Shown one piece after another: positions 12,372-26,826 of a stretch of DNA of 64,000 nt. The position numbers were made by a program, and so were the translations under genes. The stretch's first letter is position 1. The number at the start of each line of letters is the position of its first letter. The stretch comes from a virus. The stretch spans positions 47,273 through 111,272 of the IMG/VR virus record IMGVR_UViG_3300032073_000007. One strand, given 5' to 3'. Below the pieces are notes generated by a model. It was not told the DNA's origin. It ran no database searches and saw only the letters and a list, made by a program, of their open reading frames with translations.

Positions 12372-14267
12372 TCAAATCGCAAAGGGAATAAATGTTCCTT
12401 CTGGTTTCTGCTCTAAAGATGCATTCTCAGCATCAAAGAATACTTTTGCAAACCAATTCCCTAGAACTAAAGAAGAATAAGAGTCTTTTCTAGCTCTATT
12501 CGGGCCTTTCTGTCTTCTTAAATTTTGAGGTAAGTTAAATGATTGAGAGCCTTGGGGGTTAGCAATAACCTCAATGTTAGCGCATTCCGACTTTGTAAGT
12601 TCAACCACATACTTTTGGTGGTCTATGAAATCAATCATCATAGCTCCCTTAGAAGCCTTGGGGGATTTTATGTCCCAGTTTAATTTATCTATAGGCAAAT
12701 TCTTTTTTCTTTGCTCATCAAAGTGAGAGTCGATTGCTCTAGAAGCAAATAAAATTCTTTTATGGTCTATCGCTGCTTGCAACATCTCATTGGCATTTCT
12801 AATCCAGTTTGATGTAGGTTTTCTTAAGATGCAGTAATTCCTTTCTCTTAAGTTATATTGATTTTTAAAACTTGTTATATCTGTATTCCAGTTCTCTGGC
12901 TTCTCTAAATCAACATCAATCACACCTATGTTTATATTCTCGTTTTTAAACAAAGCACTTTCGTTACAAGAATTTATAAACTGAACTCCTCCATTATAGT
13001 CACCACATATACCTACAATATTAAAATGTTTCAGCAAGTATAGCATATATTCCATATGCTGTTTTAAAGAAACCCCTGCTATGGCATAACCATGAACTAA
13101 ACAAACTTTTTGTGCTTCTCTGTCTATCTTGAAGACATGCATAGCAAAATGGTCAGCACTTGTGTTCCCAGCCCAGTTTGGGTCAAAAGATAATAAGTAT
13201 TCATGACTGGGGTTACCAACTACTTCGACAGCGGGTAATTCTCCGTCTGGTATCGTGCAAGCGGCCATCTTTGATAATCTGTAATATCCATCACTCTCAT
13301 CTATGAATTGTGCGCCAAACTCTCTTTTAAACTGCATTTCACTCATGGTGGCTTTAGCTTGTTTAAGCAGATTCTGATCGTATAGCATTGATGGGGCGCA
13401 GTCGTAACTAAGCTGCATTATTAGCCTATAAGCATCATCTTTAAGGGTATCCTCTTCCTCATCTTCTTGCCCATCCCCTTGTCCTTGTATTAACTCTTCA
13501 TATTTTTTATAGAGTTTATACATATACTCAAATTTAAATGATGGAGATGAAAGAATAATAAGTTTGTTATTAGGCCATATATATCTATCCTTTTCTCTCA
13601 TCTCGCCTTTGTCGATTAGACGGGATTCTAAATTGTATAGTTCCTCCCTCTCGATAGGATTCTCTACCACCCCCAAAAATGGTATAATAACTTCATTAAA
13701 TATTTTTTCAGGTATCGTTAAGAACTCATCCAACACAATCCTATTAAATCGAAATCCACGAAGTCTCTCACCATTAGCTAACGGAAGGGCTATCGCCCTA
13801 GCCTTACCTAAAGTCATTGTCCATTGGTCAGTTCCTTTTGTTATTTTAAATCCACATTCTTTAATTAGACTTGCTTCGGGTTTGCTAATTATATCCTCCA
13901 TCTTTTGGAAGATTTGTTTAGATTGCCTAAATGTCCCAGCAATAACCCCTATGTTTGAATTTGGGTTGAGTAGGCACTCCAGTAATACGTAGATCGCAGT
14001 AGAGAATGTCTTCGACATACCTCGCGAGAATACGAACATGGAATAGTCAGAAACCATCATCCCCTTAATAGCCATAGCCTGAAAGGGGAATAACTTAACA
14101 CCTAAAAATAACTCAGAAGTAAATGCTATATTGTTCCGCAAGAACTTATACAGCAAATACTTCGCTTCTTCTTCTTTGATACTGCCATCAATTCCCTTTA
14201 GGAACTCGTTGAGTTCCTGAGAGGAATGCTCAAACCGATATCCTTGTTCTCCCTTTGTCCAAGACAT
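12372..14267 (-). CDS. terL: Terminase large subunit
   Basis: LFPFQ adenine motif, SRGMSKT Walker A variant, LRGFRFNRIVLDE Walker B, RNase H-like LSFDP...ADHFAM...KDSYSSL. Confidence 0.9.
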   Translation of the reverse strand: MSWTKGEQGYRFEHSSQELNEFLKGIDGSIKEEEAKYLLYKFLRNNIAFTSELFLGVKLFPFQAMAIKGMMVSDYSMFVFSRGMSKTFSTAIYVLLECLLNPNSNIGVIAGTFRQSKQIFQKMEDIISKPEASLIKECGFKITKGTDQWTMTLGKARAIALPLANGERLRGFRFNRIVLDEFLTIPEKIFNEVIIPFLGVVENPIEREELYNLESRLIDKGEMREKDRYIWPNNKLIILSSPSFKFEYMYKLYKKYEELIQGQGDGQEDEEEDTLKDDAYRLIMQLSYDCAPSMLYDQNLLKQAKATMSEMQFKREFGAQFIDESDGYYRLSKMAACTIPDGELPAVEVVGNPSHEYLLSFDPNWAGNTSADHFAMHVFKIDREAQKVCLVHGYAIAGVSLKQHMEYMLYLLKHFNIVGICGDYNGGVQFINSCNESALFKNENINIGVIDVDLEKPENWNTDITSFKNQYNLRERNYCILRKPTSNWIRNANEMLQAAIDHKRILFASRAIDSHFDEQRKKNLPIDKLNWDIKSPKASKGAMMIDFIDHQKYVVELTKSECANIEVIANPQGSQSFNLPQNLRRQKGPNRARKDSYSSLVLGNWFAKVFFDAENASLEQKPEGTFIPFAI

Positions 14268-15183
14268 TTACTCGTTCGTCTATAAAATATTGTAAGTCAA
14301 CATTCCACATAGCTTCTCCGTGATAAAGAATAAGTGGAATTAGCTTTTTAGCTCCTGCTCTGTTGTGTGCAAAAATGATTTGTATGTTTTTGGGGTAGTC
14401 TATAATTAAGTTTCTTATATTGTGCCATAGGTAACCAAGATTAGACTTAAACTTAGAAGTCTTGTTGTCTTCTTCTAATTTGTCTATTGTTGTTTCTGCT
14501 ACAACAAACATGTAAGAGTTAAACTCTACGCACCTGTCCATCTCGCGTCGAAACCTGTCAATGTCCTTACCGAAGGTTTGCCTAAAGTCATCTTGTGATT
14601 TGCGATCAACAAATGTCTTTGTATATAGGTCTCCTCTTGCAGTATAGTCTCCGAAGTCTAATTTATTTGTTACAGAGTCTTGAAACTTAAGTGGGGCTTT
14701 TTCTCTAGTGTCAGTAAAGATAGGTATAGTCTGATAGTCATGCTCCCAGAAATCTTTGGGTAGATTTGTATTGAAGTAATTTTCTACCTCAAGTTCTTCT
14801 AAGAAGGCAGAATAAGAACCCCAGAACTTTTTATAGTAAAATATGCTTGCCATCTGCGACAAGTCATAAAAAAGGTTTGGCGGTGATATAGAAATTTCTT
14901 TTGATGTAAATTTATCTACTACCTTTTCTTTGATATATGTTTTGACCTCCTCCTCTGGAGCCGAGTCCATCCATAACTTAAAATTATCATAACAGTTAAA
15001 GCTATCCCTAAAATATTGATCATAAGATCGAAAAGCCAGTTTTTCACCCGTGTATAGGTCTCTTCGGTCGTAGTGTTTGACATAATAATCTCCTATAGTT
15101 AGAGAATGAGCTTTCAAGTGAGCATGGAAGCTCCTCTTTTTGTCAAACTCTTTACCACATTCTTTACAGACAAAATTGCTCAT
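14230..15183 (-). CDS. C2H2 zinc finger plus ERCC4/XPF-type nuclease
   Basis: CKECGKEF...HAHLKAH; DTRE, GDY, VDRKSQDDF motifs. Confidence 0.7.
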   Translation of the reverse strand: MSNFVCKECGKEFDKKRSFHAHLKAHSLTIGDYYVKHYDRRDLYTGEKLAFRSYDQYFRDSFNCYDNFKLWMDSAPEEEVKTYIKEKVVDKFTSKEISISPPNLFYDLSQMASIFYYKKFWGSYSAFLEELEVENYFNTNLPKDFWEHDYQTIPIFTDTREKAPLKFQDSVTNKLDFGDYTARGDLYTKTFVDRKSQDDFRQTFGKDIDRFRREMDRCVEFNSYMFVVAETTIDKLEEDNKTSKFKSNLGYLWHNIRNLIIDYPKNIQIIFAHNRAGAKKLIPLILYHGEAMWNVDLQYFIDERVNVLDKGRTRISV

Positions 15184-16241
15184 AAGATCTCTTTTTTAGA
15201 TATTCCTAGAATCCGAGCTTTGTAGTCATCCATAGACTCAAGTCGGTCAGCTTCTTCTTCGATTAGTTTGTTTTGCATTTCTGCCATCATAATCATCCTA
15301 TCACGCTCCTCTTTCTCTTGAAATGCCTCCACTAGCGCAGCAATGCTACCGTTTTGCTCTCCTCTTGCCTTTAAACGCGCCTGACGGCTTCCGTTGAGGT
15401 CTTTGGTCAAAGATTCGATTCTTTTCTCACATTGATTTAGCTCGTCGCTGGTGGCCTTTATAAGCTCAGTAAGACGCAAGGTTATATCTCGCTCATTTTC
15501 TGTGTCATTGAGCATATTGTTCAATCTGTCGATTCTTTGCTGAATATGCTTCTGACGAACATAGTTCGTGCAAACAGTAATATACAAGTTTAGCTCATCA
15601 TTTGTTAAATCGGGCTTGTCCCACACCGTCCGAACAAACTCACTCTCAAATAAGTCTCTATCTGCTATTGTTGAGTATTGATTAATGAAATGAACGAAAC
15701 GAGGACTCTTCAGGTAGAAGAGAAGCCTTTCGCACATTTTCTTTTGTTTTGTTTGTATTGATATTTCGTCAAATGTCTGACCAGCCCAATCGTTAACCTT
15801 CTTAATGGCCCTAGATAGCGATTTAGGAGGAGTCCACTTGTCACTAGTGATCATATCATTGTCATCGACAATCTCTGGCCTGTAACTACGGAGAAACTCC
15901 ATAACCATCCTATGCTGCTGACTAAGTGGCTGTATCTCTCTATCCCGAAAAGCTAATCTAGTAGCCTCTAAAGCATTCATACCTCTCTCGATGTTATCAC
16001 TCATCAAGAATTCTCTTTGTTCAGTTGTTAAATCTATTTCTTCAACTCTTTGTGGTGTGGTGGTATTAAATTCTAAATTATTATTAATTAAAAATGCTCT
16101 GACAGCCCGACCCTCCTTAGAACGACCATCCAAACTATCGTTTTCAAACACTATTTGTGTGATATGCCTCAAATCTGGATTTTTAACGAACTCTTCTTGT
16201 ATTTGAGTCTTTTGTTTCTCTGTTAATGCTAAATTGTTCAT
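15180..16241 (-). CDS. Coiled-coil protein, possible terminase small subunit
   Basis: Helical/coiled-coil 353 aa upstream of terL; function by position only. Confidence 0.35.
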   Translation of the reverse strand: MNNLALTEKQKTQIQEEFVKNPDLRHITQIVFENDSLDGRSKEGRAVRAFLINNNLEFNTTTPQRVEEIDLTTEQREFLMSDNIERGMNALEATRLAFRDREIQPLSQQHRMVMEFLRSYRPEIVDDNDMITSDKWTPPKSLSRAIKKVNDWAGQTFDEISIQTKQKKMCERLLFYLKSPRFVHFINQYSTIADRDLFESEFVRTVWDKPDLTNDELNLYITVCTNYVRQKHIQQRIDRLNNMLNDTENERDITLRLTELIKATSDELNQCEKRIESLTKDLNGSRQARLKARGEQNGSIAALVEAFQEKEERDRMIMMAEMQNKLIEEEADRLESMDDYKARILGISKKEIL

Positions 16242-16915
16242 AAAATGTCATTGTTCTTTATAATCTTAAGAGCAATTAAATAAAATTTCTTTTTTAAATT
16301 TGCCATCTGTTTGTATCTCGGTTTTTTCCGCTTGGCAGAGTCGGCTTTGAACCCAAATTTCTTCGCAACATCATTTTCTTCAATGTTCTCGACGTAAAGC
16401 ATGTAATAAATCTTTTTATGCTTCTCGCTTAACTGATCCATTACAAGTTTATGCAATTTCTCAGCCGAACCATCATAATCAACAAAATCTTTTATTGTCG
16501 CGGTTCCTGTCGAAACACCTTCTTCCAAAGCTAATGGAAGCTTTATGTTATACGCTCTTTCTTTTTTCTTTTTCCATTTAGCAAAATCAGGGCAAGATTC
16601 ATCTTGCTCTTGGCTTTTTGTAAATTCACAAGAGTTTGCCCCCATATTATGAGGGCAGCGCAAACATGGCTTTGCAAAACTTGAATAATTATTACGAATC
16701 AGGTTTTTAATCTGATTTGATATAATCATCGAAGCCCAAGGCTTGAATGGGCGAGACTGATCCCAAAGATGCCACTTATTATGTATATGTATTCGGATTA
16801 TTTGACAAACATCATCATAATCCATCCAAGCTAAAGCGCTTAGTTGCCATTTTGGTCTATATTTTTTAAGAAGCTCTTCTAAATAATCTCGCTGACTATC
16901 AAAATCATTATTCAT
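16238..16915 (-). CDS. Phage-encoded ECF/sigma70-family sigma factor
   Basis: Region 2-like DDVCQ...WDQSRPFKPWASMIISNQIKNLIR; region 4-like LSEKHKKIYYMLYVENIEENDVAKKFG; Cys-rich linker. Confidence 0.75.
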   Translation of the reverse strand: MNNDFDSQRDYLEELLKKYRPKWQLSALAWMDYDDVCQIIRIHIHNKWHLWDQSRPFKPWASMIISNQIKNLIRNNYSSFAKPCLRCPHNMGANSCEFTKSQEQDESCPDFAKWKKKKERAYNIKLPLALEEGVSTGTATIKDFVDYDGSAEKLHKLVMDQLSEKHKKIYYMLYVENIEENDVAKKFGFKADSAKRKKPRYKQMANLKKKFYLIALKIIKNNDIL

Positions 16916-17270
16916 CTACATCTCTCATCCGAGATGAGGAACAATCTTTAATAGTTTGATCTAAAAGTTCTTTTCCATCAGGATCTTTCGAAGCTGGCCT
17001 AGAAAAACTATCTCTTTCCATTCCTGCTTCGGCAGCAGTAACAGAACCCCAAATTTGTTCAACTGTAGTCTTTTGATTAGAAGACTCTACAACAATGTCT
17101 CTTTTTAATTTATCTAAATCAACATCTAACTCAGGCTGCTCGTCCACATCTTGTTCTCTTGAAGCCTTGGATAAGCCATCGAGACTCTGCCCACATTCTG
17201 GGCAAAACTTAGGCTTCTTTACCTCATACAAGATCTTATGTCCACACGATACACAAAAAAGTTTATTCAT
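16908..17270 (-). CDS. Zinc-ribbon protein
   Basis: CVSCG...FCPECG. Confidence 0.7.
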   Translation of the reverse strand: MNKLFCVSCGHKILYEVKKPKFCPECGQSLDGLSKASREQDVDEQPELDVDLDKLKRDIVVESSNQKTTVEQIWGSVTAAEAGMERDSFSRPASKDPDGKELLDQTIKDCSSSRMRDVDE

Positions 17271-17281
17271 GGCTAATTTTA

Positions 17282-17959
17282 TTAATTTAATTGGTTTTTT
17301 TCAATTTTATCTACTAAATAGCTGATAATCTTATCTCTCATAACATCATCCTTCGTAAAATGTAGATGATGTATCCCATGACTTCTACTTTCTTCATCAT
17401 CGAAGACCTTACAAAATTGTTGAAAGCCAGTAGACCTAATATCACTCTGCATAGTATCTCCACATATAAATAATGTAGAGTTCGCACTTATCCTAGTAAT
17501 GACAGTTGTAAGTTCTTTTATCGTCATGTTTTGCGCTTCGTCAACGATAACGACCTTATTCCTCCATGTAGACCCACGAATAAAGTTAATCGGGGCCGCA
17601 TCTATCGCATTCCTTTGTTGTAATTGTTGTTTTTCATGTGGACTTAAAAGTTCATCCAGTTTATCATCTAGGGGTCCAATATATGGATTGAATTTATCAT
17701 CCATACTTCCTTTCAGAAAACCCATCCCCTTATCCGCACTCTCTGCCAAACTCCTCAAATAAAGAATATTAAGCAGATTGTCCTGATTGTGTTTGTATAT
17801 AGCCGTATACACTGACAAAAATGTCTTTGCCGTCCCTGCTGGCCCACTTATAAATACTACCCTCGTATTGGGGTTCCTCATGATCTTATGAAATTGACTT
17901 TGTTTTTCTGTAAGTTCTATATGCCCCAACAAAAAAGAGTTTTTATATTTATATGACAT
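17282..17959 (-). CDS. phoH: PhoH-family ATPase
   Basis: GPAGTAKT, GFLKG, FIRGST, IVDEAQN, GDTMQSD. Confidence 0.92.
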   Translation of the reverse strand: MSYKYKNSFLLGHIELTEKQSQFHKIMRNPNTRVVFISGPAGTAKTFLSVYTAIYKHNQDNLLNILYLRSLAESADKGMGFLKGSMDDKFNPYIGPLDDKLDELLSPHEKQQLQQRNAIDAAPINFIRGSTWRNKVVIVDEAQNMTIKELTTVITRISANSTLFICGDTMQSDIRSTGFQQFCKVFDDEESRSHGIHHLHFTKDDVMRDKIISYLVDKIEKNQLN

Positions 17960-18117
17960 GTATGTTCTTTTTTACACGAATAACTGAATGGTTGGTTACT
18001 TGTTTATAGAATTCACCACCCCCCCGCGCTGTGAGCGTCAAGTCATTTCTCAAAAATTCTCAAAAAACCCACCCCTACCTACCCGCCAAAAAAAAGAAAA
18101 TAAAAGCATCTTTTCTC

Positions 18118-18146
18118 TTGCTTTCTATCTGGATCTGTGCTATACT
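18118..18146 (+). promoter_or_regulatory. Sigma70-type early promoter (first of a series, see findings)
   Basis: TTGCTT-17-TATACT, ATG 6 nt downstream. Confidence 0.75.
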
Positions 18147-18152
18147 ATGCCC

Positions 18153-18350
18153 ATGAAAGAAATTAAAACTTCCTTAGTCTCCGATCTTACATTCATTGAA
18201 ATTGCTGATACTCTTCGGCCTGACCAATGGGCTGATTGGTATGTAGAGTTTTCTTACAAGGGCAAAGACTACGAAGGGTCTTTACAGGCTGGAGTTCACA
18301 ACGCAGAAGATTTTCATCACGATCTAATCGAATACGTCGAAGAAAAATAA
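18153..18350 (+). CDS. Small acidic early protein
   Basis: Start reassigned to leaderless ATG 18153 (MKEIKTSL...). Confidence 0.7.
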   Translation: MKEIKTSLVSDLTFIEIADTLRPDQWADWYVEFSYKGKDYEGSLQAGVHNAEDFHHDLIEYVEEK

Positions 18351-18408
18351 TTCAAAATAATAGCAGAAAAAGCTTTTTTAAAATCAATTTTTAATGTATA
18401 ATTCCCAC

Positions 18409-18669
18409 ATGACAGAAAACAAAGAATACTACCGCAGCGTAACTTGGGACGATGGTCGCACAGTTAAATTCAACGACGACTTCGAGGTCGAGGGCTTCAC
18501 CAAGGTTACCGACATCTGGCCTTCCGAGAGTTCTGTAGCTAGGAACCTTGAACAGCGCAAGGCTTTGGGCGGTGGTAAGTCCTATGGCTACCGCTACAAG
18601 TCTATGCAAAGACAAGATTGGTATGTAGACTTCGATGCAAAAGCTTTCTGGGCCGTTGATAATGTCTAA
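18409..18669 (+). CDS. Small early protein
   Basis: TATAAT-6 nt-ATG (MTENKEYY...). Confidence 0.7.
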   Translation: MTENKEYYRSVTWDDGRTVKFNDDFEVEGFTKVTDIWPSESSVARNLEQRKALGGGKSYGYRYKSMQRQDWYVDFDAKAFWAVDNV

Positions 18670-18723
18670 AAAAAAGAATAAAAAACCCTTGCACAGAATC
18701 AAAATCTAAGCTATACTAAACCC

Positions 18724-18906
18724 ATGACAGAGACAACCACTACCAAGACTGACCAAGATAAATTCTTTCAAGAGCGCAACGCAGCAACCGAAATGCGTGA
18801 TGATCTTTTCTTCGTTGTAGGATGGCTTAAAGCTGACAATCCAGAGATCTCGAAAAGACTTGAAGACATTCTCAAAAACCACGACAGAAACAGAGTCGGC
18901 TGGTAA
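18724..18906 (+). CDS. Small early protein
   Basis: TTGCAC-17-TATACT-6 nt-ATG. Confidence 0.7.
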   Translation: MTETTTTKTDQDKFFQERNAATEMRDDLFFVVGWLKADNPEISKRLEDILKNHDRNRVGW

Positions 18907-18947
18907 TTCACCCAAACCCAAAACCAAACACTAACAAAAACAAAATC

Positions 18948-19283
18948 ATGAACCATCGTTTAAACTACCTCAAGAACTTCGTCACTATCGTAATGATCAC
19001 CCACCTTGCCGTGCTTGCCGTCTTCGGCTTGTTGGCTTACTTCGTTGGCTTACCTCAAGCCATTGATAACATAGGAGGATGGTATGAGACCAAAGCAAAC
19101 GGAGAGGTCTACTATCATGCCTATAACTTCCTGCACTTCATGGCTCTCACTTACCTTCCTGCTATGGTGCTAGCTCCTTGCATTACTGCCATCGACTGGA
19201 TCAATGACGCACCCGCAAGACGCAAGCTCAAGCGCACACCTAACACAATCACAGGAAAAGAATTAGTTGATATAAAACTCTAA
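18948..19283 (+). CDS. Two-TM membrane protein
   Basis: Two hydrophobic segments. Confidence 0.65.
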   Translation: MNHRLNYLKNFVTIVMITHLAVLAVFGLLAYFVGLPQAIDNIGGWYETKANGEVYYHAYNFLHFMALTYLPAMVLAPCITAIDWINDAPARRKLKRTPNTITGKELVDIKL

Positions 19284-19325
19284 AATAATCCTTGCAATAA
19301 TCTCAAACTAAACTATACTAACATC

Positions 19326-19667
19326 ATGACCGTTAAAAAACCCGCATTCATCTATTCCGTAATCGTTAAAGCCCTCAAGGATTGTCGCTTGAGGGAAGAC
19401 CACGCTCAAGTAGAAGAGCCATCCATTGATAACTATACTGGAGCTGTAATCATTGACATGTGCAGGGCAGCAGTTAATCATAACCGCGACCTCCGTGACT
19501 TTCGCACAGTGTGCGAGGAAACACTGAAGGTAATCCTCCGCTTGCGTAGGGATTCAATACCAATGATCGGCCCGACTTGTCACAATGATCTCGTCAAGGA
19601 AGGTCTTATGGTTGAGGGCGAAGATCTGGCCACGAATAACATGAATGAAAAACTCTCGGTAGGGTAA
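19326..19667 (+). CDS. Early hypothetical protein
   Basis: TTGCAA-16-TATACT-6 nt-ATG; followed by a terminator. Confidence 0.7.
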   Translation: MTVKKPAFIYSVIVKALKDCRLREDHAQVEEPSIDNYTGAVIIDMCRAAVNHNRDLRDFRTVCEETLKVILRLRRDSIPMIGPTCHNDLVKEGLMVEGEDLATNNMNEKLSVG

Positions 19668-19682
19668 CCTGCCACTGTCATG

Positions 19683-19720
19683 GAGCCTCGTCACCCCAAC
19701 GGGTGGCGAGGTTTTTTCTT
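19683..19720 (+). terminator. Intrinsic terminator
   Basis: GCCTCGTCACCC-CAAC-GGGTGGCGAGGT plus T tract. Confidence 0.8.
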
Positions 19721-19748
19721 GTAAAAAAACAAATAAAAAGCTTGACAG

Positions 19749-19827
19749 CGTAACTCACTGATACTCAACGAGTTACGCGCGGCGGCCCGCCCCCGCCCCG
19801 TAACTCCTTGATAACCAACGACTTACG
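19749..19827 (+). repeat. 79-bp bipartite palindromic element, copy 1 (forward)
   Basis: CGTAACTCACTGATACTCAACGAGTTACG + CGCGGCGGCCCGCCCCCGCCC + CGTAACTCCTTGATAACCAACGACTTACG. Confidence 0.95.
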
Positions 19828-19975
19828 AAGATTCCTCATGTATCATACTTTCAGATCAACGCAAGCATTTAAATGAAAAAAATTAACCTGTCTGACAACT
19901 TAAAAAAAAATCATTTTAAAGGTAAAAAAAGCTTTTAATTCATACGGATCTGTGCTATACTTCTCCCAGCAAGAA

Positions 19976-20089
19976 AGCTCTATAGTTTAAAAAGTAAAAC
20001 ATTCTCCGCGACCGCTTCAACAATAAGTCACCGCAACCCCAATGGTTCGGGCGAGAAAGATAAAGGTGCAAGTCCTTTTAGAGCGACCA
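19976..20089 (+). ncRNA. tRNA-Pro(CGG)-like RNA with 39-nt insertion in the anticodon arm
   Basis: Acceptor GCTCTA/TAGAGC with GACCA end, D stem GTTT/AAAC, anticodon stem TTCTC/GAGAA, T arm AAAGG-TGCAAGT-CCTTT; own promoter (TATACT 19956-19961). Confidence 0.7.
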
Positions 20090-20151
20090 ATTTCCCTAAA
20101 AAAACAAAATAAAAGTTTGCACTATCTCAAAAACTAAAGTAGATTCTACTC

Positions 20152-20340
20152 ATGACAGAAAAAGAACAAATCGAACACCTCAAAGATCAAATCTTCAAAC
20201 TTCAAATGGTAATGAAGGGAGTTTCAGGCATCGCAGCAGCAAGGTCTTCATTCAAAGAGACTTCTGCCTTTAACAAGGAGACCTTCAAAAGAATCGAGAG
20301 CCAACTTGATGAAGCAGTCAAGGAAGTTCAGTTAGGGTAG
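20152..20340 (+). CDS. 62-aa helical early protein whose last codon and stop overlap the mini-tmRNA
   Basis: TTGCAC-17-TAGATT-6 nt-ATG. Confidence 0.75.
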   Translation: MTEKEQIEHLKDQIFKLQMVMKGVSGIAAARSSFKETSAFNKETFKRIESQLDEAVKEVQLG

Positions 20341-20399
20341 CAAGGGTTTCGACGGGACGCAAGTCGCGGATGGGGGTTCGACTCCCCCGCTATCCACCA
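20335..20399 (+). ncRNA. Mini-tmRNA: tRNA-like domain only, no tag reading frame
   Basis: GGGTAGC/GCTATCC acceptor with G3-U70, A discriminator, encoded CCA; stemless D loop AAGGGTTTCGAC; short helix capped by GCAA; GGAT; GGGGG-TTCGACT-CCCCC T arm. Confidence 0.85.
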
Positions 20400-20467
20400 A
20401 AAAAAAATCAAAATAAATACAAAAAAAGCTTTTTACTCACTCAAATCTCTGTTATAATTCTCTCGTT

Positions 20468-20803
20468 ATGAAAAACACCACTACCACTACCACCACCCGC
20501 TTCGATCACTCTCTCTATGGACTCAGTGATCAAGACCTCAAGAAAAAGCTCACCAATCGCGTTGTTATCTACTGGAACAGCGAAGAATCCTCCGTCAAGA
20601 ATGATGGTGTCCGTCAGTTCGTGGTCAAGTCAATCGACTACACTGGTCACGCCAAGGGTTCGGGTCGCCGTTACATCCAAGGGGAGTTCCAAGACCTCGA
20701 CGATGGAGGCAAGACCAAGTTCCGCACTCTCCACGTTGCGGGAATCGAAAAGGTGAAGGGTCGCGTGGCGACCGCTTACAAGCTAGCCAAATCAGTTTTT
20801 TAA
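20468..20803 (+). CDS. Stand-alone WYL-like domain protein (paralogue A)
   Basis: RQFVVKSI...GRRYI...DGGKTKFRTLHVAGIEKV; paralogue of 21930-22208. Confidence 0.5.
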   Translation: MKNTTTTTTTRFDHSLYGLSDQDLKKKLTNRVVIYWNSEESSVKNDGVRQFVVKSIDYTGHAKGSGRRYIQGEFQDLDDGGKTKFRTLHVAGIEKVKGRVATAYKLAKSVF

Positions 20804-20817
20804 GTGCATAGCGTGTT

Positions 20818-20854
20818 GCCCGTCAGTCTCTTCGGAGGCTGGCGGGTTTTTTTT
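20818..20854 (+). terminator. Intrinsic terminator
   Basis: GCCCGTCAGTCTC-TTCG-GAGGCTGGCGGGT plus T tract. Confidence 0.85.
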
Positions 20855-20883
20855 GCATTAAATTGTTTTTTGGCCTTGACAGC

Positions 20884-20962
20884 CGTAACTCCTTCATACT
20901 CAGTGAGTTACGCGCTGCGGCCAGCCCGCCCTGCGTAACTCCTTGATACTCAACGAGTTACG
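20884..20962 (+). repeat. 79-bp element, copy 2 (forward)
   Basis: 29+21+29 bp; core CGCTGCGGCCAGCCCGCCCTG. Confidence 0.95.
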
Positions 20963-21103
20963 TCACCTTACAAAATATGCAGTGTGATGCCCTGTCAAGT
21001 AAATATTTAGCTATTTGTTATTTGTTGTTCTAACCTGTAACCTAAGACAAAAAAAAGATAAAAAAACATTTGCACTCCTGCGATCTTCTGGTAGGTTACT
21101 CGC

Positions 21104-21340
21104 ATGACAGTTCAAAACCCTATTGGCCAACTCGCCCCGATGACAGAATCTGACCTGCGCGATATGCTCAGTGATGGGCCTCGCTGCGGGAACTGGAACC
21201 CTACGCCCGATGAGGTGCAGGAGGTTCTCGCTGAGATCCACTCTGATCTCGGTGATCGCGATCCTCAGTGGTCTACTGATCAGGACGGATTGGACCCCTC
21301 AGACGCTCAAGCCCTCCAGTCTTACCTCGACGCTGAATAA
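21104..21340 (+). CDS. Small acidic early protein
   Basis: TTGCAC-16-TAGGTT-6 nt-ATG; terminator at 21365-21391. Confidence 0.7.
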   Translation: MTVQNPIGQLAPMTESDLRDMLSDGPRCGNWNPTPDEVQEVLAEIHSDLGDRDPQWSTDQDGLDPSDAQALQSYLDAE

Positions 21341-21447
21341 TCAAAAGAGACAAGACTCTCTTCAAGGCTCCCGAAAGGGAGCTTTTTTTTTGTGCTTTTA
21401 TGTAAAAAAAAGATTGCCAAAAGCAAATTATCTGTTACACTACTCTC

Positions 21448-21666
21448 ATGTATACGTTCAGCTACTACATCGTCGCCAGCACAGGAGTTTACACAGGAGT
21501 CGCGATGTCGCGTTCTCCCAAGAAGGCTTCTGAAGAAGCCTCGCGGATCGCTTGGGAAAATCTCTACGAGGGGGATGCCAAAGCTGAATACTGTTCGGGC
21601 ATCTCCGTGGAGGGGTGGACAGCGTGGCGAGGTCATAAAAAAATCGCGGAATACATGGACATCTAA
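21448..21666 (+). CDS. Small early protein; stop codon lies inside element copy 3
   Basis: TTGCCA-16-TACACT-6 nt-ATG. Confidence 0.65.
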   Translation: MYTFSYYIVASTGVYTGVAMSRSPKKASEEASRIAWENLYEGDAKAEYCSGISVEGWTAWRGHKKIAEYMDI

Positions 21667-21740
21667 CTCCTTGATAATCAGGGAGTTACGGGGCGGGGGT
21701 AGGCCGCAGCGCGTAACTCATTGATATACAACGAGTTACG
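21662..21740 (-). repeat. 79-bp element, copy 3 (reverse core)
   Basis: Core GGGCGGGGGTAGGCCGCAGCG is the reverse complement of the consensus core. Confidence 0.95.
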
Positions 21741-21929
21741 ACTGAAAAAAAATGAATTTAAATGCAGAAATCGCTTGCATATCTGGTGATATTTGGTAAA
21801 CTATTTGCATCGAAGCTATTTAACCTATGCTTCTCTAACCTACAACAAAAACAGACCATGCTCAGAAAAAAATTAAAATTCAGCAAAAAACCTCTTGCAC
21901 TCACTCAAAATCCTGTTATACTTATCCCA

Positions 21930-22208
21930 ATGCAAACAAACACCATTACTGCCAACCTCACCCTTCCTACTAACCCTGTGCAACTTGCTTCTGCTCTTAC
22001 TGGCAAGACAGTTCACTATACAACTAAAAAAGATTCTTCTGTTACCTTCGACAGAGAAAGGGTCTTCAAGGTTGAATCCGTAGAGGACGTTTCAATCTCT
22101 CAATCAACGGGAGATCAATATGTAAATGTCAAGATCATTGACCCTCAAGATGGTGGTAAGGAGAAATACAGAAACCTCATTGTAGATAGAATTTCGACTG
22201 TTGTGTAG
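21930..22208 (+). CDS. Stand-alone WYL-like domain protein (paralogue B)
   Basis: Start reassigned to ATG 21930 after TTGCAC-16-TATACT; RVFKVESV...GDQYV...DGGKEKYRNLIVDRISTVV. Confidence 0.55.
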   Translation: MQTNTITANLTLPTNPVQLASALTGKTVHYTTKKDSSVTFDRERVFKVESVEDVSISQSTGDQYVNVKIIDPQDGGKEKYRNLIVDRISTVV

Positions 22209-22316
22209 GTGTGTAAACGCATAAGGGGTGGTAGGTGTGTGTGTGTCTTAAGTCCTGCCACCCCTTTCTACAACAAAAAATTTGACAAACAACAAACAAT
22301 AGAATAAATTAGCATC

Positions 22317-22538
22317 ATGCCTAAATCATCAGAAACACTTCGTATCGAAGTCAAAACACAGGAACAAGCCGCCATTCTTAACTATGCTCTTGGCTTGGTT
22401 CATCAGCACCTCGCAAGTCGTCTTGAGGAGGTAGAAGATAATAAACTTGATACCTTCTTAGATAATGTTAAGTGGACTCGCAAACACGCAAAGTCTCTTA
22501 ATGACAAGTTTTCTCTTAGTGAGTTACAGAATTCCTAG
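22317..22538 (+). CDS. Small early protein
   Basis: TTGACA-17-TAAATT-6 nt-ATG. Confidence 0.7.
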   Translation: MPKSSETLRIEVKTQEQAAILNYALGLVHQHLASRLEEVEDNKLDTFLDNVKWTRKHAKSLNDKFSLSELQNS

Positions 22539-22548
22539 GAGTTGAATT

Positions 22549-22696
22549 GGACCACAGAGAAATCATGGTTCATCTAGAAACTCCGAAGAACAGGTGGTAA
22601 CAGTGACCAACTCTTAATTGACTGGCACTCGTCAACAAGCCGACCCTCTCTCACTCTTCTAGACAGTGAGGGAGGGAACCACTTTCTTGCTAGATG
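22549..22696 (+). ncRNA. Candidate structured RNA
   Basis: Several nested helices, including the 12-bp CCCTCTCTCACT/AGTGAGGGAGGG and closing CATCTAG/CTAGATG. Confidence 0.45.
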
Positions 22697-22700
22697 GGGT

Positions 22701-22743
22701 AAGTCCCGTCCTCCTTCGTCACTGGGGGGCGGGGCTTTTCTTT
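22701..22743 (+). terminator. Intrinsic terminator immediately before the tRNA
   Basis: AAGTCCCGTCCTCC...GGGGGCGGGGCTT-TTCTTT. Confidence 0.7.
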
Positions 22744-22816
<73 letters not shown>

Positions 22817-22895
22817 CCTAACTCCTTAATACTCAGGGACTTACGCGCTGCGGGCGGCCCCCGCCCCGTAAGTCGTTGATACTCAACGACTTACG
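22817..22895 (+). repeat. 79-bp element, copy 4 (forward), abutting the tRNA 3' end
   Basis: Core CGCTGCGGGCGGCCCCCGCCC. Confidence 0.95.
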
Positions 22896-22998
22896 CAGGA
22901 AAAAGAAACACATGTTTTTAAGTCTGTCAAGCAGAAAAAAATAAAAGAAAAAGCTAAAAAAGGGTTGCATCAAATCAATTATGTGGTAAACTTCTTGC

Positions 22999-23757
22999 AT
23001 GTTGATACTAGCTAAAAACAAAGTCGATTCCGAGCAACTTGCAGAAGTCATCACTCCTGCCGCTACGGATACCCACACTCCAATCGGTCACGCACTCCTT
23101 GCGGAGCGCACTCGCAATGTCATCGCGAAGGCTGGTCTTGAGATCACTCAAGAAGAACACGCCATCGCGCGTGGCGGTCTCCGCTACTTCGGCGGCTTCG
23201 CCCTCAAGGGCGAGGCAATCGACGGGGATGATCGCAAGCTTGTGCTTGGTCTCCGCAACGCGCACGACAAGTCCTTTGCGGCTTCCGTGTGCATCGGCAA
23301 CCAGATGATGGTCTGCGAAAATCTTTGCTTCTCTTCTGATGTGAAGCTCGCTCGCCGTCACACCGTCAACATCCTTCGGGATCTGAACACGGTCCTTTCG
23401 TCTGCCGTCAGTCGCGTTACCTCGCACTGGGCTGACATGGGCAATCGGATTGCCTCCTACAAGGAGAGTGAAATCTCTAAGGAGGCGGCTTCCGACTTGG
23501 TTGTCGATCTTGCCGAGATGGGTGCGTTTCCTGCGCGTTCCGTCTACAAGGCGATTCAGGAGTTCCGCAACCCTCGCCATGAGGAGTTCAAAGGTGGGAC
23601 GCTCTGGACGCTCTACAACGGCGTGACTGAGCATCTCAAGGGTGGCGACCTTACCAAGTTGCCACAGCGCACGATGACCACGCAGTCTGTCTTTGACAGG
23701 CTCGCGGGCCACAAGCCCAAGATCGTCGAGGCCGAAGAGATTGCCTTGCCCGCATAG
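22999..23757 (+). CDS. DUF932-like protein
   Basis: THTPIGH, RNAHDKS, VCENL, ARRHT, TLWTLYNGVTE motifs; leaderless promoter; terminator at 23777-23807. Confidence 0.75.
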   Translation: MLILAKNKVDSEQLAEVITPAATDTHTPIGHALLAERTRNVIAKAGLEITQEEHAIARGGLRYFGGFALKGEAIDGDDRKLVLGLRNAHDKSFAASVCIGNQMMVCENLCFSSDVKLARRHTVNILRDLNTVLSSAVSRVTSHWADMGNRIASYKESEISKEAASDLVVDLAEMGAFPARSVYKAIQEFRNPRHEEFKGGTLWTLYNGVTEHLKGGDLTKLPQRTMTTQSVFDRLAGHKPKIVEAEEIALPA

Positions 23758-23854
23758 CCCTGCCGCTACCATCACAGGCCCGCATTCCGAAAGGGGTGCG
23801 GGCTTTTGCTTGCAAAAATAAAATGTTTTTTTAGTTGACACGGTATTCAAGCCT

Positions 23855-23933
23855 CATAACTCGTTGAATATCAACGAGTTACGGGGCGGGGGCCGCCCGC
23901 GCAGCGTAACTGCTTGATACTCAAGGACTTACG
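23855..23933 (-). repeat. 79-bp element, copy 5 (reverse core)
   Basis: Core GGGCGGGGGCCGCCCGCGCAG; its reverse complement matches the copy 4 core at 18/21. Confidence 0.95.
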
Positions 23934-23992
23934 ACTGAATTTTAATTCTTTTTTAATTTGACAGTTTTTTTTCTTTGGGGTATATTTTTGCC

Positions 23993-24199
23993 ATGACTAA
24001 GACATATAATATTTCTCGACGAGGATCGCGCACAAACCCACATGACCTACCTTTTGATTTTGTATTTGAGTGGTTTAATGGGACAGAAGAAATAGGTATT
24101 TTCTGCTCATTACACGCAGCGATCACGCTTGCAGAAGAATTTGAAAAGTTCGGTTATAAAGAGTTGGAGGGCAGCATTCAATTTACCTCTGCAATTTAA
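23993..24199 (+). CDS. Small early protein
   Basis: TTGACA-17-TATATT-6 nt-ATG (MTKTYN...). Confidence 0.65.
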   Translation: MTKTYNISRRGSRTNPHDLPFDFVFEWFNGTEEIGIFCSLHAAITLAEEFEKFGYKELEGSIQFTSAI

Positions 24200-24244
24200 A
24201 TTAATTTTAATTGACAAACTAGAAAACTCTGTTACATTACCCAC

Positions 24245-24931
24245 ATGGCAAAACTACTTAACGATGGAAATTCCAAAACAAGCAAGGGAGAAAAGTATGG
24301 TTGGAAAACCTATGGAATACACCTTGCCCCATATAACCTATCAGGAAAAAATGTTTGTGCTTCTGCTTCTGCTGGTTGCGCTGCTGCTTGTCTCAATACT
24401 GCTGGTCGTGGATCAATGAATTCAGTTCAAAATGCCCGAGTTAAAAAAACACAGAGGTTTCATGAGGATCGGGATGGATTCCTATCGCAGTTATTCAAAG
24501 AAATTAAAAGCTCGATTAAAAGCGCTACGAGAAAAGAACTAAAGAGTTGCTTCCGTTTAAATCTTACAAGTGACATCCTTTGGGAGCGATTTGTTGTTGG
24601 ACATTTTCCAGATACTCAATTTTACGACTATACTAAACACCTAAATAGATTCGTTCGTTTCTTGGAGGGCAAACTACCAAGCAATTATCATCTCACTTTT
24701 TCAAGGAAAGAGAATACTCCTGACACTTTGGTAAAGAGCTTGTGTGCAAGTGGTGGCAATGTTTCAGTTGTGTTTAGGAAAAAGTTACCTAAAACGTGGC
24801 TTGGAATAGAAGTAATTGATGGCGACGATTCCGATCTGCGTTTTGAAGATGGCAATGGCAAGATTGTCGGTCTAGTAGCAAAAGGCAAAGGAAAGAAAGA
24901 CGAAACAGGTTTTGTTGTGGAGCCAGAATAA
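24245..24931 (+). CDS. Gp88-like Cys-cluster phage protein
   Basis: NSKTSKG, CxxxxxxCxxxC-LNTAGRG, RLNLTSD, FYDYTK, DGDDSDLRF motifs. Confidence 0.7.
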   Translation: MAKLLNDGNSKTSKGEKYGWKTYGIHLAPYNLSGKNVCASASAGCAAACLNTAGRGSMNSVQNARVKKTQRFHEDRDGFLSQLFKEIKSSIKSATRKELKSCFRLNLTSDILWERFVVGHFPDTQFYDYTKHLNRFVRFLEGKLPSNYHLTFSRKENTPDTLVKSLCASGGNVSVVFRKKLPKTWLGIEVIDGDDSDLRFEDGNGKIVGLVAKGKGKKDETGFVVEPE

Positions 24932-25011
24932 AGATCCCCTGCAAAAAAAATGCAGGAAAATCAAATAATTTTTATAGTAATAGTAACAGCAATAATAACA
25001 ATATACTTTTC

Positions 25012-25194
25012 ATGACAATAGAAGTAACACAAAAGGAAGTTTATGGAAACACCCTAACCTATGTGGCAGATGAATCTGTCAGGAATTCCATAAAGAAACT
25101 AACGGGAAGAAAAACTTTGACCGACTACGACATTGAAGCTCTCAAGGAACTGGGCTTCGTCTTAGTCCTCAAGCAAATGACCGTCAACATCTAG
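25012..25194 (+). CDS. Small phage protein
   Basis: KEVYGN...LTGRKTLT...LKELGF pattern. Confidence 0.7.
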   Translation: MTIEVTQKEVYGNTLTYVADESVRNSIKKLTGRKTLTDYDIEALKELGFVLVLKQMTVNI

Positions 25195-25202
25195 CCCATC
25201 TC

Positions 25203-25281
25203 CGTAACTCCTTCATAATGAGGGAGTTACGCGCGGCGGCCCGCCCGCTCGGCGTAACTCGTTGATAATCAGTGACTTACG
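25203..25281 (+). repeat. 79-bp element, copy 6 (forward)
   Basis: Core CGCGGCGGCCCGCCCGCTCGG; marks the end of the plus-strand island. Confidence 0.95.
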
Positions 25282-25363
25282 ACAGATCAATGTATAAAAA
25301 AAACCGCACAAACGTGCGGTTCTGTGGTATGCTTATTTGCTTATTAAGGCTTTAACCTATAAC

Positions 25364-25888
25364 CTAAGACTGAATTTTATATGGACTGCTATCAGAATTA
25401 TTAAGTTCATTTGCTACAACCTGAAGCTTGCCATATGTTTCTTGCTTTCTGCCTCTCATCCACATACAATCCCAACGCTGTCTTCGAGGTTTGCGGTGGT
25501 AGTATCGGTATATTTCTCCTGTGTCTTTATTAATCAGTTTCCATTTACCTTTAATGGTTTTTACTGTGCCTCCTTTCTCTTCAGGGGTATAGCATCTCTC
25601 AGGTCGTGCGCCCACCTTGATACACATCCGCTTCCACTCAGCGTCGTGACCATGCCCGCTGCCCGCAAGAGCGTGGGCAATCTCATGGAGAACAACGTCT
25701 TTAGATTCTTCTATTGTATTAATCAGAACCAGCTTCTTTGTAATACCAATTTCTTTTTTGTAGTATCTGCATTGCCCGTATCTGCTGGTGGCCTTATTGT
25801 CCCAGACCATTTTCCAGCCTATTCCTGCTAAACACCATTCTTCAAGCTTCTCTTGCGCGAACTTCTGTATTTCTATTAGCTTGTTCAT
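25364..25888 (-). CDS. SprT-like zinc metalloprotease
   Basis: YGQC, LHEIAHAL, HGHDAEWK; start placed at MNKLIE. Confidence 0.8.
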   Translation of the reverse strand: MNKLIEIQKFAQEKLEEWCLAGIGWKMVWDNKATSRYGQCRYYKKEIGITKKLVLINTIEESKDVVLHEIAHALAGSGHGHDAEWKRMCIKVGARPERCYTPEEKGGTVKTIKGKWKLINKDTGEIYRYYHRKPRRQRWDCMWMRGRKQETYGKLQVVANELNNSDSSPYKIQS

Positions 25889-25952
25889 TGATTTAAAGTA
25901 ACTATTATTGTTATTATTACTAGGAATATAATCCACCACTGATATAGTGTCA

Positions 25953-26246: not shown

Positions 26247-26826
26247 GAGCAAACTATACTCCCCACCTACGGTGGGGTCAAGAATAAAAATGAATAAAAA
26301 TCACTAAAAATTAAGAAAGTAATCACTTAAAAGATAAAATGCGGTTGCTAAAAAAACTAAATATAAAGTTGCTTCTATTCTGCTCATGTTTATTAAGGTT
26401 TTATTCTATAAACTGGGGTTCTTTATTTGTCGATTAAATGTGCAATTATCGACACGTTTTGTCTATATGTATTCTATATACACATATACTTATTAAGACA
26501 AACGAAAATAAACTGGCGATTAAATAACAGTAAATTATTATTAATTAGACTGAATCACCGAGAAAGCCCTTTTATTTGGTTGAATTAGGTTAAATTGAGG
26601 TGGGCTAGGGGAACCGAAAGAACTTATTTATTTATTTAGCGCGTAGGCGACTATCCTAAATTTCTTTCTTATTTGTTCTATTGATGCTAAAACCCTTATT
26701 TTATCTTGTTTTCTTTTATATTTACCCCTATGTATTTCTTATATAGATCTATTCTATTTTATTCTTTTAAAGAGTCTTTTAATTAATTATAAATGGAGAA
26801 GTAATTTAAATTGATTTTATTGTAAT

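Follow-up and report, generated by a model that had tools for sequence, protein, structure and literature searches.

The 64,000-nt stretch of viral DNA analyzed here, referred to as the window (positions 47,273 to 111,272 of IMG/VR record IMGVR_UViG_3300032073_000007), contains six copies of a 79-bp element within an island of accessory genes. Each copy consists of a 29-bp near-palindrome, a 21-bp GC-rich spacer and a second 29-bp near-palindrome; in the following, the palindromes are called arms and the spacer is called the core. We propose, with a probability of about 0.45, that the element is bound by protein and insulates gene cassettes, and that it also serves as a homology patch through which the cassettes are shuffled. 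The island and its elements, with the orientation of each core (F or R), are:

17988-25281, + strand: accessory-gene island, between the gene for PhoH (17282-17959, − strand) and a SprT-like gene (25364-25939, − strand).
19749-19827: element 1; arm 19749-19777, core 19778-19798 (F), arm 19799-19827.
20884-20962: element 2; arm 20884-20912, core 20913-20933 (F), arm 20934-20962.
21662-21740: element 3; arm 21662-21690, core 21691-21711 (R), arm 21712-21740; its bases 21664-21666 (TAA) form the stop codon of the open reading frame (ORF) 21448-21666.
22817-22895: element 4; arm 22817-22845, core 22846-22866 (F), arm 22867-22895; a tRNA-Met gene (22744-22818) adjoins it with its 3' end.
23855-23933: element 5; arm 23855-23883, core 23884-23904 (R), arm 23905-23933.
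25203-25281: element 6; arm 25203-25231, core 25232-25252 (F), arm 25253-25281.

The six start positions, the 29-21-29 lengths and the order of core orientations (F,F,R,F,R,F) reproduce those of a first-pass annotation of this DNA, and the contexts described there hold on inspection. Terminators lie upstream of elements 1 and 2 (from a terminator listing) and of element 5 (read by eye from the sequence), element 3 is located on a stop codon and element 4 on a tRNA 3' end. The stop codon of ORF 25012-25194 lies 8 bp 5' of element 6, which is the final copy and marks the end of the + strand island. Elements 4 and 5 bracket a DUF932 gene (22999-23757). The arm consensus, scanned over the 64 kb with up to three mismatches, returned exactly the 12 arms of the six elements and nothing in 100 dinucleotide shuffles, which confirms the earlier statement that the window holds no further copy. 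The right arm of element 2 has no mismatch to this consensus.

IMG/VR was scanned for exact matches to a degenerate arm pattern, which identified at least 117 viral loci, and all family-wide counts given here rest on the matches listed; in collecting arms for the family tables, seven mismatches were permitted. At least 777 arms were found in these loci; of the pairs of neighboring arms, 264 have a distance (pitch) of exactly 50 bp and another 52 one of 49 or 51 bp. After de-duplication, this corresponds to at least 263 distinct 79-bp elements in more than 100 viral metagenome contigs. The geometry, which had been put forward as a point to check in relatives, is therefore kept. In three whole relatives (two complete and one 87% complete), the arms occur solely in accessory-gene islands, while a reversed control pattern gave no matches:

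G001 (170 kb): arms at 0.3-15.7 kb and at 169.7 kb.
G002 (148 kb): arms at 24.0-27.0 kb and at 140.3-143.0 kb.
G003 (112 kb): arms at 97.0-107.6 kb.

The TerL proteins of these relatives are only 35-74% identical, yet the arms are almost invariant. Some specific reader must exist if the arms are kept through TerL divergence down to 35%, and finding it would lead to the function of a conserved noncoding signal. G003 carries variants with a 51-bp pitch, additional arms at a 34- to 35-bp pitch and three arms at a 60-bp pitch. Its region 97047-98860 (L039/L090) contains whole arm arrays, with 34- to 35-bp pairs, four-arm elements and three identical arms 60 bp apart that have a perfect GC hairpin between them. 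A literature search with the arm sequence matched only an unrelated primer. In viral metagenomes, the element is a practical marker by which accessory-gene islands can be found, and assemblies are probably broken by it there. Most contigs with close DUF932 homologs are only 1-2 kb long, which fits assembly breaks at flanking repeats. One candidate function was rejected at this stage: invariant TAA and TGA triplets close all six reading frames in 76% of the pitch-50 copies, but we consider such a six-frame stop signal a by-product, because none of the nine pitch-51 copies of G003 shows six-frame closure.

The arms probably represent a double-stranded DNA site for a symmetric protein and not a selected hairpin. 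Among 526 arms, T3, A4, A5, T11, A19, T25, T26 and A27 are invariant or nearly so, position 20 is occupied by A or G only, and positions 6, 9, 10, 14-16, 21 and 24 are variable. Mirrored positions do not covary: Watson-Crick pairs number 138 at positions 6/24 (137 expected) and 134 at positions 10/20 (154 expected). Cross pairs between left and right arms are at or below chance at all variable positions, the biggest excess being 8 pairs (200 versus 192), and RNAalifold gave a consensus energy of −0.25 kcal/mol for 70 promoter-oriented copies. On the basis of these pair tables and the RNAalifold result, we rejected a hairpin, be it RNA or cruciform, as the selected feature, even though the single strands are able to fold. 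Since it is the 'stems' that are invariant while the 'loops' vary freely, we read the arms as protein-bound sites. This agrees with the first-pass annotation, which had suggested paired protein sites at a fixed 50-bp pitch; the lack of hairpin covariation and the pitch kept in relatives both favor that suggestion. The half-sites differ as well. Outer half-sites more often read GTAAGTC and have C or T as their first base, inner ones mostly read GTAACTC, and this difference is mirror-symmetric over the entire 79 bp, which suggests that one protein complex may span both arms.

The consensus of the integration host factor (IHF) had previously been noticed in many arms, and this match extends to the whole family. 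A perfect WATCARNNNNTTR is present in 389 of the 526 arms (74%), usually on one strand only, and 82 more arms contain it with a single mismatch; element 1 has a perfect match in both arms, on the bottom strand. The central triplet of the arm is mostly TAC or its complement GTA, or T-A/T-A; with it, one or both strands nearly always remain perfect, which a random triplet would achieve much less often (~22%). The invariant positions and the A/G-only position 20 likewise fit WATCARNNNNTTR. The A/T tract that lies about one helical turn 5' of the consensus in IHF-type sites is not found; the flanking A-tracts lie ~19 bp away and are explained by the −10/discriminator regions of the promoters described below. 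Of the other operator motifs compared (CIRCE, FNR, Fur, NtcA, BirA, dif and C-boxes), none appears to fit the arm.

Many elements are associated with a promoter that faces inwards; neither these promoters nor the size of the family had been noticed in the first-pass annotation. Of 244 elements, 94 (39%) have a TTGACA behind an A/T tract at a distance of 33-38 bp from their edge, and 19 of them have it on both sides, with ~2 per side expected by chance. It is followed by 16-17 bp, a weak TA-rich −10 box (TA(t/a)(a/g)(a/g)(a/g)) and an A-tract, and judging from this spacing, transcription would start 3-6 nt before the first arm. Each element has two positions for such a promoter, one reading with the genes (sense) and one against them (antisense). 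Gene direction inferred from the longest ORF was too noisy, and DUF932 was used as direction marker instead. For the 46 elements around 23 distinct DUF932 cassettes, the promoter was present at 23 of 46 antisense positions versus 1 of 46 sense positions. The usual order is gene, element, antisense promoter back-to-back with the promoter of the next gene, and next gene, as is clear in L025. The window contains the following sites:

20963-20998, − strand: antisense promoter-like site into element 2; TTGACA at 20998-20993, 36 bp from the edge.
22896-22930, − strand: antisense promoter-like site into element 4; TTGACA at 22930-22925, with an A/T-rich tract behind it.
19742-19747, + strand: TTGACA 1 bp before element 1; A-rich upstream tract, no properly spaced −10 box.
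20876-20881 and 23825-23830, + strand: similar TTGACA motifs without a usable −10 box, before elements 2 and 5, respectively.

In the family, TTGACA directly before an element (the '−7 class') has 10-16 members. The genes of the island have a repeated promoter family of their own (A-tract, GCTTTT/TTGCA, ~17 bp, TATAMT; at 19923-19965, 20420-20462, 21059-21101, 21884-21926 and 22954-22996), the −10 box of which ends 6-9 nt before the ATG, suggesting leaderless or near-leaderless early mRNAs. In another sublineage (L029, L084, L108, L112, L101), two CTAACAG direct repeats lie between the inward −35 box and the element. Another repeated motif, TAACCTRTAACCTAAGAC, is found in the window at 21016-21048, 25338-25370 and 26387-26414; it lies ~60-90 bp 3' of elements 2 and 6.

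Comparison of relatives revealed replaced, missing and reordered cassettes. Two loci (L093, L096) carry 388 bp instead of the module 19828-20884, with junctions at 19827 and 20885, two others (L089, L094) lack 21265-21663, with the junction at 21664, and in further loci a tRNA-like RNA and the gene at 20468 are found in swapped order. In the window, 10 of 80 homology ends lie within 5 bp of an element edge, compared to 2.1% expected (p 6e-6). Family-wide, element edges account for 87 of 1168 homology ends versus 17.4 expected, a fivefold enrichment (p 1.5e-33), and ends inside elements are depleted (15 versus 52.9 expected). The idea of the first-pass annotation that the elements are sites of cassette exchange thus stands with regard to the enriched breakpoints; most breakpoints, however, lie elsewhere, and no dedicated recombinase was found, as neither Phage_integrase (PF00589) nor Resolvase nor Y1_Tnp (PF01797) was detected in G001-G003. 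Among 261 locus pairs with both flanks homologous, there was no usable empty site: the gap between the flanks is 78-80 bp in 241 pairs and never ~0, save for one weak and dubious 15-bp overlap. Because no integrase, resolvase or Y1 transposase and no empty site were found, homologous recombination at the conserved patch would be the simplest route of exchange. In the assembled contigs of two RNA and two DNA sequencing runs, we found no excision or inversion joints that could be distinguished from the elements of other relatives, although contigs alone do not amount to evidence that such joints are absent.

The core turned out to be less specific than the arms. The first-pass annotation had described it as asymmetric, but it is no fixed asymmetric sequence. 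It is rather a spacer with 90% G+C, and either strand passes from a G-rich first half to a C-rich second half. The core shows weak dyad symmetry (53% paired versus 41% expected), its folding energy is barely below that of shuffled sequences, and its sequence is lineage-specific. The 21 bp alone can be inverted between orthologous elements that have identical arms and 93%-identical flanks (for instance, L009:201 versus L014:3086). The two arms of an element form an inverted repeat, and template switching or exchange from one arm to the other would therefore flip the core only. A core flip between unchanged arms explains the order F,F,R,F,R,F without any inversion of genes. Core orientation was tied to no feature that we found, and because the 21 bp can flip alone, the core does not appear to be the directional signal that had been assumed.

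Based on these observations, we propose the following model. A symmetric protein complex, formed by a host IHF-like protein or by a phage factor, would bind the two 29-bp twofold sites, each of which contains at least one IHF-type consensus, while the stiff GC-rich spacer would hold these sites 21-22 bp apart. The element stands between independently promoted gene cassettes. The sigma-70-type promoter on the downstream side of ~40% of the copies would fire backwards into the element, where antisense transcription as well as read-through would be halted, either by the bound complex or by the transcribed element through its very stable structure, with the consequence that each cassette is expressed independently. 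Ordinary homologous recombination between copies would swap, delete and reorder the cassettes, because the element is the only sequence common to otherwise unrelated cassettes, and exchange between the two arms of one copy would flip the spacer. If true, this would explain the independent expression of small early genes that change rapidly.

Several findings weigh against this model. The inward promoters have weak −10 boxes and are present in only ~40% of the copies, in the window only at elements 2 and 4, and RNA contigs from two metatranscriptome runs neither span an element nor clearly stop at one. The bases G2, T7, C8, G22 and A23 of the arm are conserved though they lie outside the IHF consensus. 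No gene of the HU/IHF family (Bac_DNA_binding) was found in G001-G003. These two points and the lack of a well-placed A-tract count against IHF as the only reader. Finally, an enrichment of homology ends beside a conserved patch is partly expected under any mechanism, and ~92% of the breakpoints are located at other gene, promoter or terminator boundaries, for which reason the elements are one exchange point among several.

The main rival explanation, which we regard as unlikely, is that the element acts as RNA. It would then form stable hairpins at the 5' or 3' ends of transcripts and function as an attenuator, terminator, stabilizer, RNase III site or ~90-nt decoy, and its dyad symmetry would make the transcripts of both strands equivalent. 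Indeed, the six copies of the window fold strongly as single strands (−28 to −35 kcal/mol, z −4.7 to −6.8), and the start site predicted for the inward promoters just before the first arm is well placed for such a transcript. Element 4 lies directly 3' of a tRNA gene, the island is rich in small structured RNAs, and the promoter-early stem-loops (PeSLs) of other phages, with polyG followed by polyC, are proven attenuators (PMC2839356). But the predicted topologies differ between the six copies, three of which form one long hairpin and three of which form three separate hairpins, and no consensus structure emerges. Covariation is absent, with a C-C or G-G mismatch at positions 6/24 in ~45% of the arms, and invariant stems with varying loops are the opposite of what is typical for RNA families. 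Moreover, Rfam gave no match overlapping an element at E ≤1, no U-tract follows the elements of the window, and ~60% of the copies have no promoter of their own. We also considered hairpin promoters of the N4 type, which serve a virion RNA polymerase, and rejected them, since no compensatory change maintains a hairpin in the arms. Two adjacent giant ORFs are present on the − strand of the window (36235-46056 and 46066-55848, encoding 3273 and 3260 aa); Pfam gave no polymerase domain for them, only a weak beta-roll match below threshold.

It is rather improbable that the elements are recombination sites of a dedicated cassette-mobilizing enzyme, perhaps DUF932 itself, after the model of attC, pdif or the repetitive extragenic palindromic (REP) sequences with their RAYT transposases. 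In favor of such an enzyme is the distribution of DUF932 genes, 37 of 39 copies of which have arms within 400 bp on both sides (medians 217 bp upstream and 109 bp downstream). This is far above the values for other island genes: GP88 reaches 6 of 36, and two paralogous small genes reach 1 of 30 and 2 of 25. The two cores on either side of a DUF932 gene often hardly differ, the arm can be read as 11-7-11 with an asymmetric center, resembling the core site of a tyrosine recombinase, and both the breakpoints at element edges and the reordered cassettes would fit. However, the flanking cores are inconsistently oriented (11 direct, 4 inverted, 8 ambiguous), most breakpoints lie away from elements, the three recombinase families mentioned above were not found in the three relatives, and the DUF932 genes of other bacteria are not located beside such sites. 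DUF932 also has no detectable nuclease or recombinase fold. Its AlphaFold model (pLDDT 75.7) gave no significant Foldseek match, VIA-align returned matches in the noise range (best FP domain, Z 8.6; TnsE C-terminal domain, Z 7.2), the Atlas pointed to DUF3871 only, and the literature gives no function for it. The link between DUF932 and the element may be functional, or DUF932 may merely be the oldest single-gene cassette of the islands. A phage-borne cassette system in which DUF932 binds or recombines the 29-bp arms would be a long shot. If it existed, the islands would be a virus-encoded analog of integrons or REP-RAYT systems, which captures and reshuffles counter-defense genes in abundant ocean phages. 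Finding the reader of the element could give DUF932 its first function.

We hardly expect the copies to be selfish miniature mobile elements, similar to miniature inverted-repeat transposable elements (MITEs) or REP sequences and mobilized in trans. They are short, terminally symmetric, intergenic and present in multiple copies, and similar palindromes occur singly or in several copies in unrelated bacteria. A 27-bp palindrome pattern gave 56 matches in 185,579 species genomes versus ~1 expected for random sequence, an expectation that is raised by perfect palindromes, and some of the matches are phage contigs binned into metagenome-assembled genomes. Others are single intergenic sites conserved across Fibrobacter species or prophage sites in Pantoea and Brucellaceae. 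In contrast to mobile elements, the viral copies are restricted to one type of island instead of being scattered over the genome, no empty site was found among the 261 pairs, no target-site duplication was seen, and no transposase was found in G001-G003. Around the look-alikes of Fibrobacter, Akkermansia, Pantoea, Brucellaceae and Alistipes, we found no common neighboring gene family, and PF01797 was not found in the Akkermansia and Fibrobacter genomes that carry them. BLAST searches of cultured phages with one element and the Pantoea site yielded nothing meaningful.

Two groups of look-alikes have features of their own. In one Akkermansia genome (G007, L174-L182), nine dispersed intergenic copies each lie within a ~170-bp unit bounded by TACAGCATT-N4-AATGCTGTA hairpins; three are at contig ends, and the neighbors are unrelated housekeeping genes. 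In Alistipes (L185, 1517-1628) and Sutterella (L125), two unrelated gut bacteria, an identical extended palindrome (GTGCC...GGCAC) with a T-run follows 10 nt after a tRNA gene and resembles an intrinsic terminator.

Very improbable, finally, is a transcription-primed start of replication or recombination, in which a G-rich transcript from the inward promoter would give rise to an R-loop at the GC core: the fixed promoter distance would fit, as would the fact that, whichever side transcription comes from, it first enters a core half that is G-rich on the RNA-like strand, but there are 6 to at least 17 copies per genome, all in a nonessential island, no linked initiator gene, no promoter at ~60% of the copies and no GC-skew inflection in the island. 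Nothing that we found points to the roles in organizing first-injected DNA, in replication or in packaging which the first-pass annotation had listed as possible.

The island itself contains small self-promoted genes, including DUF932, GP88, ORFans, a tRNA, a tRNA-like RNA and a 65-nt tmRNA-like RNA. The GC content of its cassettes ranges from 39 to 57% (38-53% when counted by module), compared to 37.6% for the remainder of the window, and this spread points to a mosaic origin. In sequencing runs from at least 14 studies, 86-99% of the island is present. The virus belongs to a lineage without cultured relative: its TerL is at most ~25% identical to that of any cultured phage, and in a nucleotide search against cultured phages the window gave matches only via its tRNA. 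The lineage is abundant in seawater, with more than 1,700 TerL relatives. G001-G003 share with the window the structural module and a block of genes from TerL to PhoH, which adjoins an island in the window, G002 and G003 and lies ~15 kb away from one in G001. The neighboring features are:

14230-17959, − strand: part of this block, kept in all three whole relatives, from an ERCC4-type nuclease with an N-terminal C2H2 zinc finger via an unknown protein of 353-355 aa, a sigma-70 region-2 protein and a Zn-ribbon protein (these three at 15180-17270) to PhoH.
19976-20086, + strand: tRNA-like RNA (RF00005, 41.6 bits), the anticodon loop of which contains an insert of 45 nt; not called by ARAGORN.
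20335-20399, + strand: tmRNA-like RNA consisting of the tRNA-like domain only (Rfam RF00023, 43.9 bits, E 5.6e-15, slightly below the gathering score); 4 nt replace the 312-nt message and pseudoknot part, and the RNA overlaps the TAG stop codon of ORF 20152-20340.

Among known systems, the Correia elements of Neisseria are MITEs that carry an IHF site and create promoters and terminators. Like these, our element is ~100 bp long, intergenic and terminally symmetric, contains an IHF consensus and interacts with transcription signals. Unlike them, it has promoters that lie outside and face inwards; neither target duplications nor empty sites were found, and there was no similarity to Correia elements in sequence. 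The pdif modules of plasmids are gene modules flanked by XerCD sites. Both attC and pdif are palindromic sites of similar size that split DNA into ~1-kb cassettes differing between relatives. Integrons in phages are the subject of PMC9892861. In the present case, however, every cassette has its own promoter, and no resemblance to dif was seen. The ends of the element are CGTAAC/GTTACG, those of attC RYYYAAC/GTTRRRY, PF00589 was not found in G001-G003, and left and right arms show no pairing covariation as in attC; positions L6/R24, for example, gave 93 Watson-Crick pairs versus 132 expected.

The REP-containing bacterial interspersed mosaic elements (BIMEs) of the RIP or RIB type are paired, imperfect, IHF-binding palindromes in extragenic DNA of enterobacteria, with a presumed influence on transcript ends and DNA topology. 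Our element is likewise extragenic, lies past the 3' ends of genes and combines paired imperfect palindromes, a short linker and an IHF consensus, and it may have a similar influence. But in RIP the IHF site is located in the linker between GC-rich REPs, whereas here the IHF-like consensus lies in the arms and the linker is GC-rich. Furthermore, BIMEs reside in host chromosomes and not in phage islands, and the RAYT family (PF01797) was not found in G001-G003. Judged from the sequence, the element does not appear to be an attC site, a REP-RAYT element, a MITE or a member of any Rfam family.

The closest parallel are the PeSL cassettes that occur in T4-type phages (PMC2839356, Arbiol et al. 2010; PMC4122927, Comeau et al. 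2014), and for these, homologous recombination at a conserved patch has been proposed (PMC2839356, PMC4122927). Both are short, conserved intergenic motifs beside ORFans in hyperplastic regions, both combine a sigma-70-type promoter and an A/T-rich upstream tract with a GC segment, which in PeSLs is a stem-loop, often polyG then polyC, and here the G-rich, then C-rich core with its weak dyad symmetry, and both mark the breakpoints of insertions, deletions and replacements between relatives. In the case of PeSLs, the promoter drives the next ORF, whereas here it faces the element, antisense to the genes (23 versus 1 around DUF932). The GC segment is enclosed here by a pair of 29-bp near-palindromes, which contain invariant bases and keep a fixed pitch of 50 bp, and the lineage is unrelated to T4, with a TerL at most 25% identical to those of cultured phages. 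Our element would work most like a PeSL, and it also resembles an IHF-type BIME. What is new is that the 29-bp site is doubled and has invariant bases, that the pitch is fixed at 50 bp, that an antisense promoter faces inwards and that the spacer can invert; the phage lineage itself is new as well.

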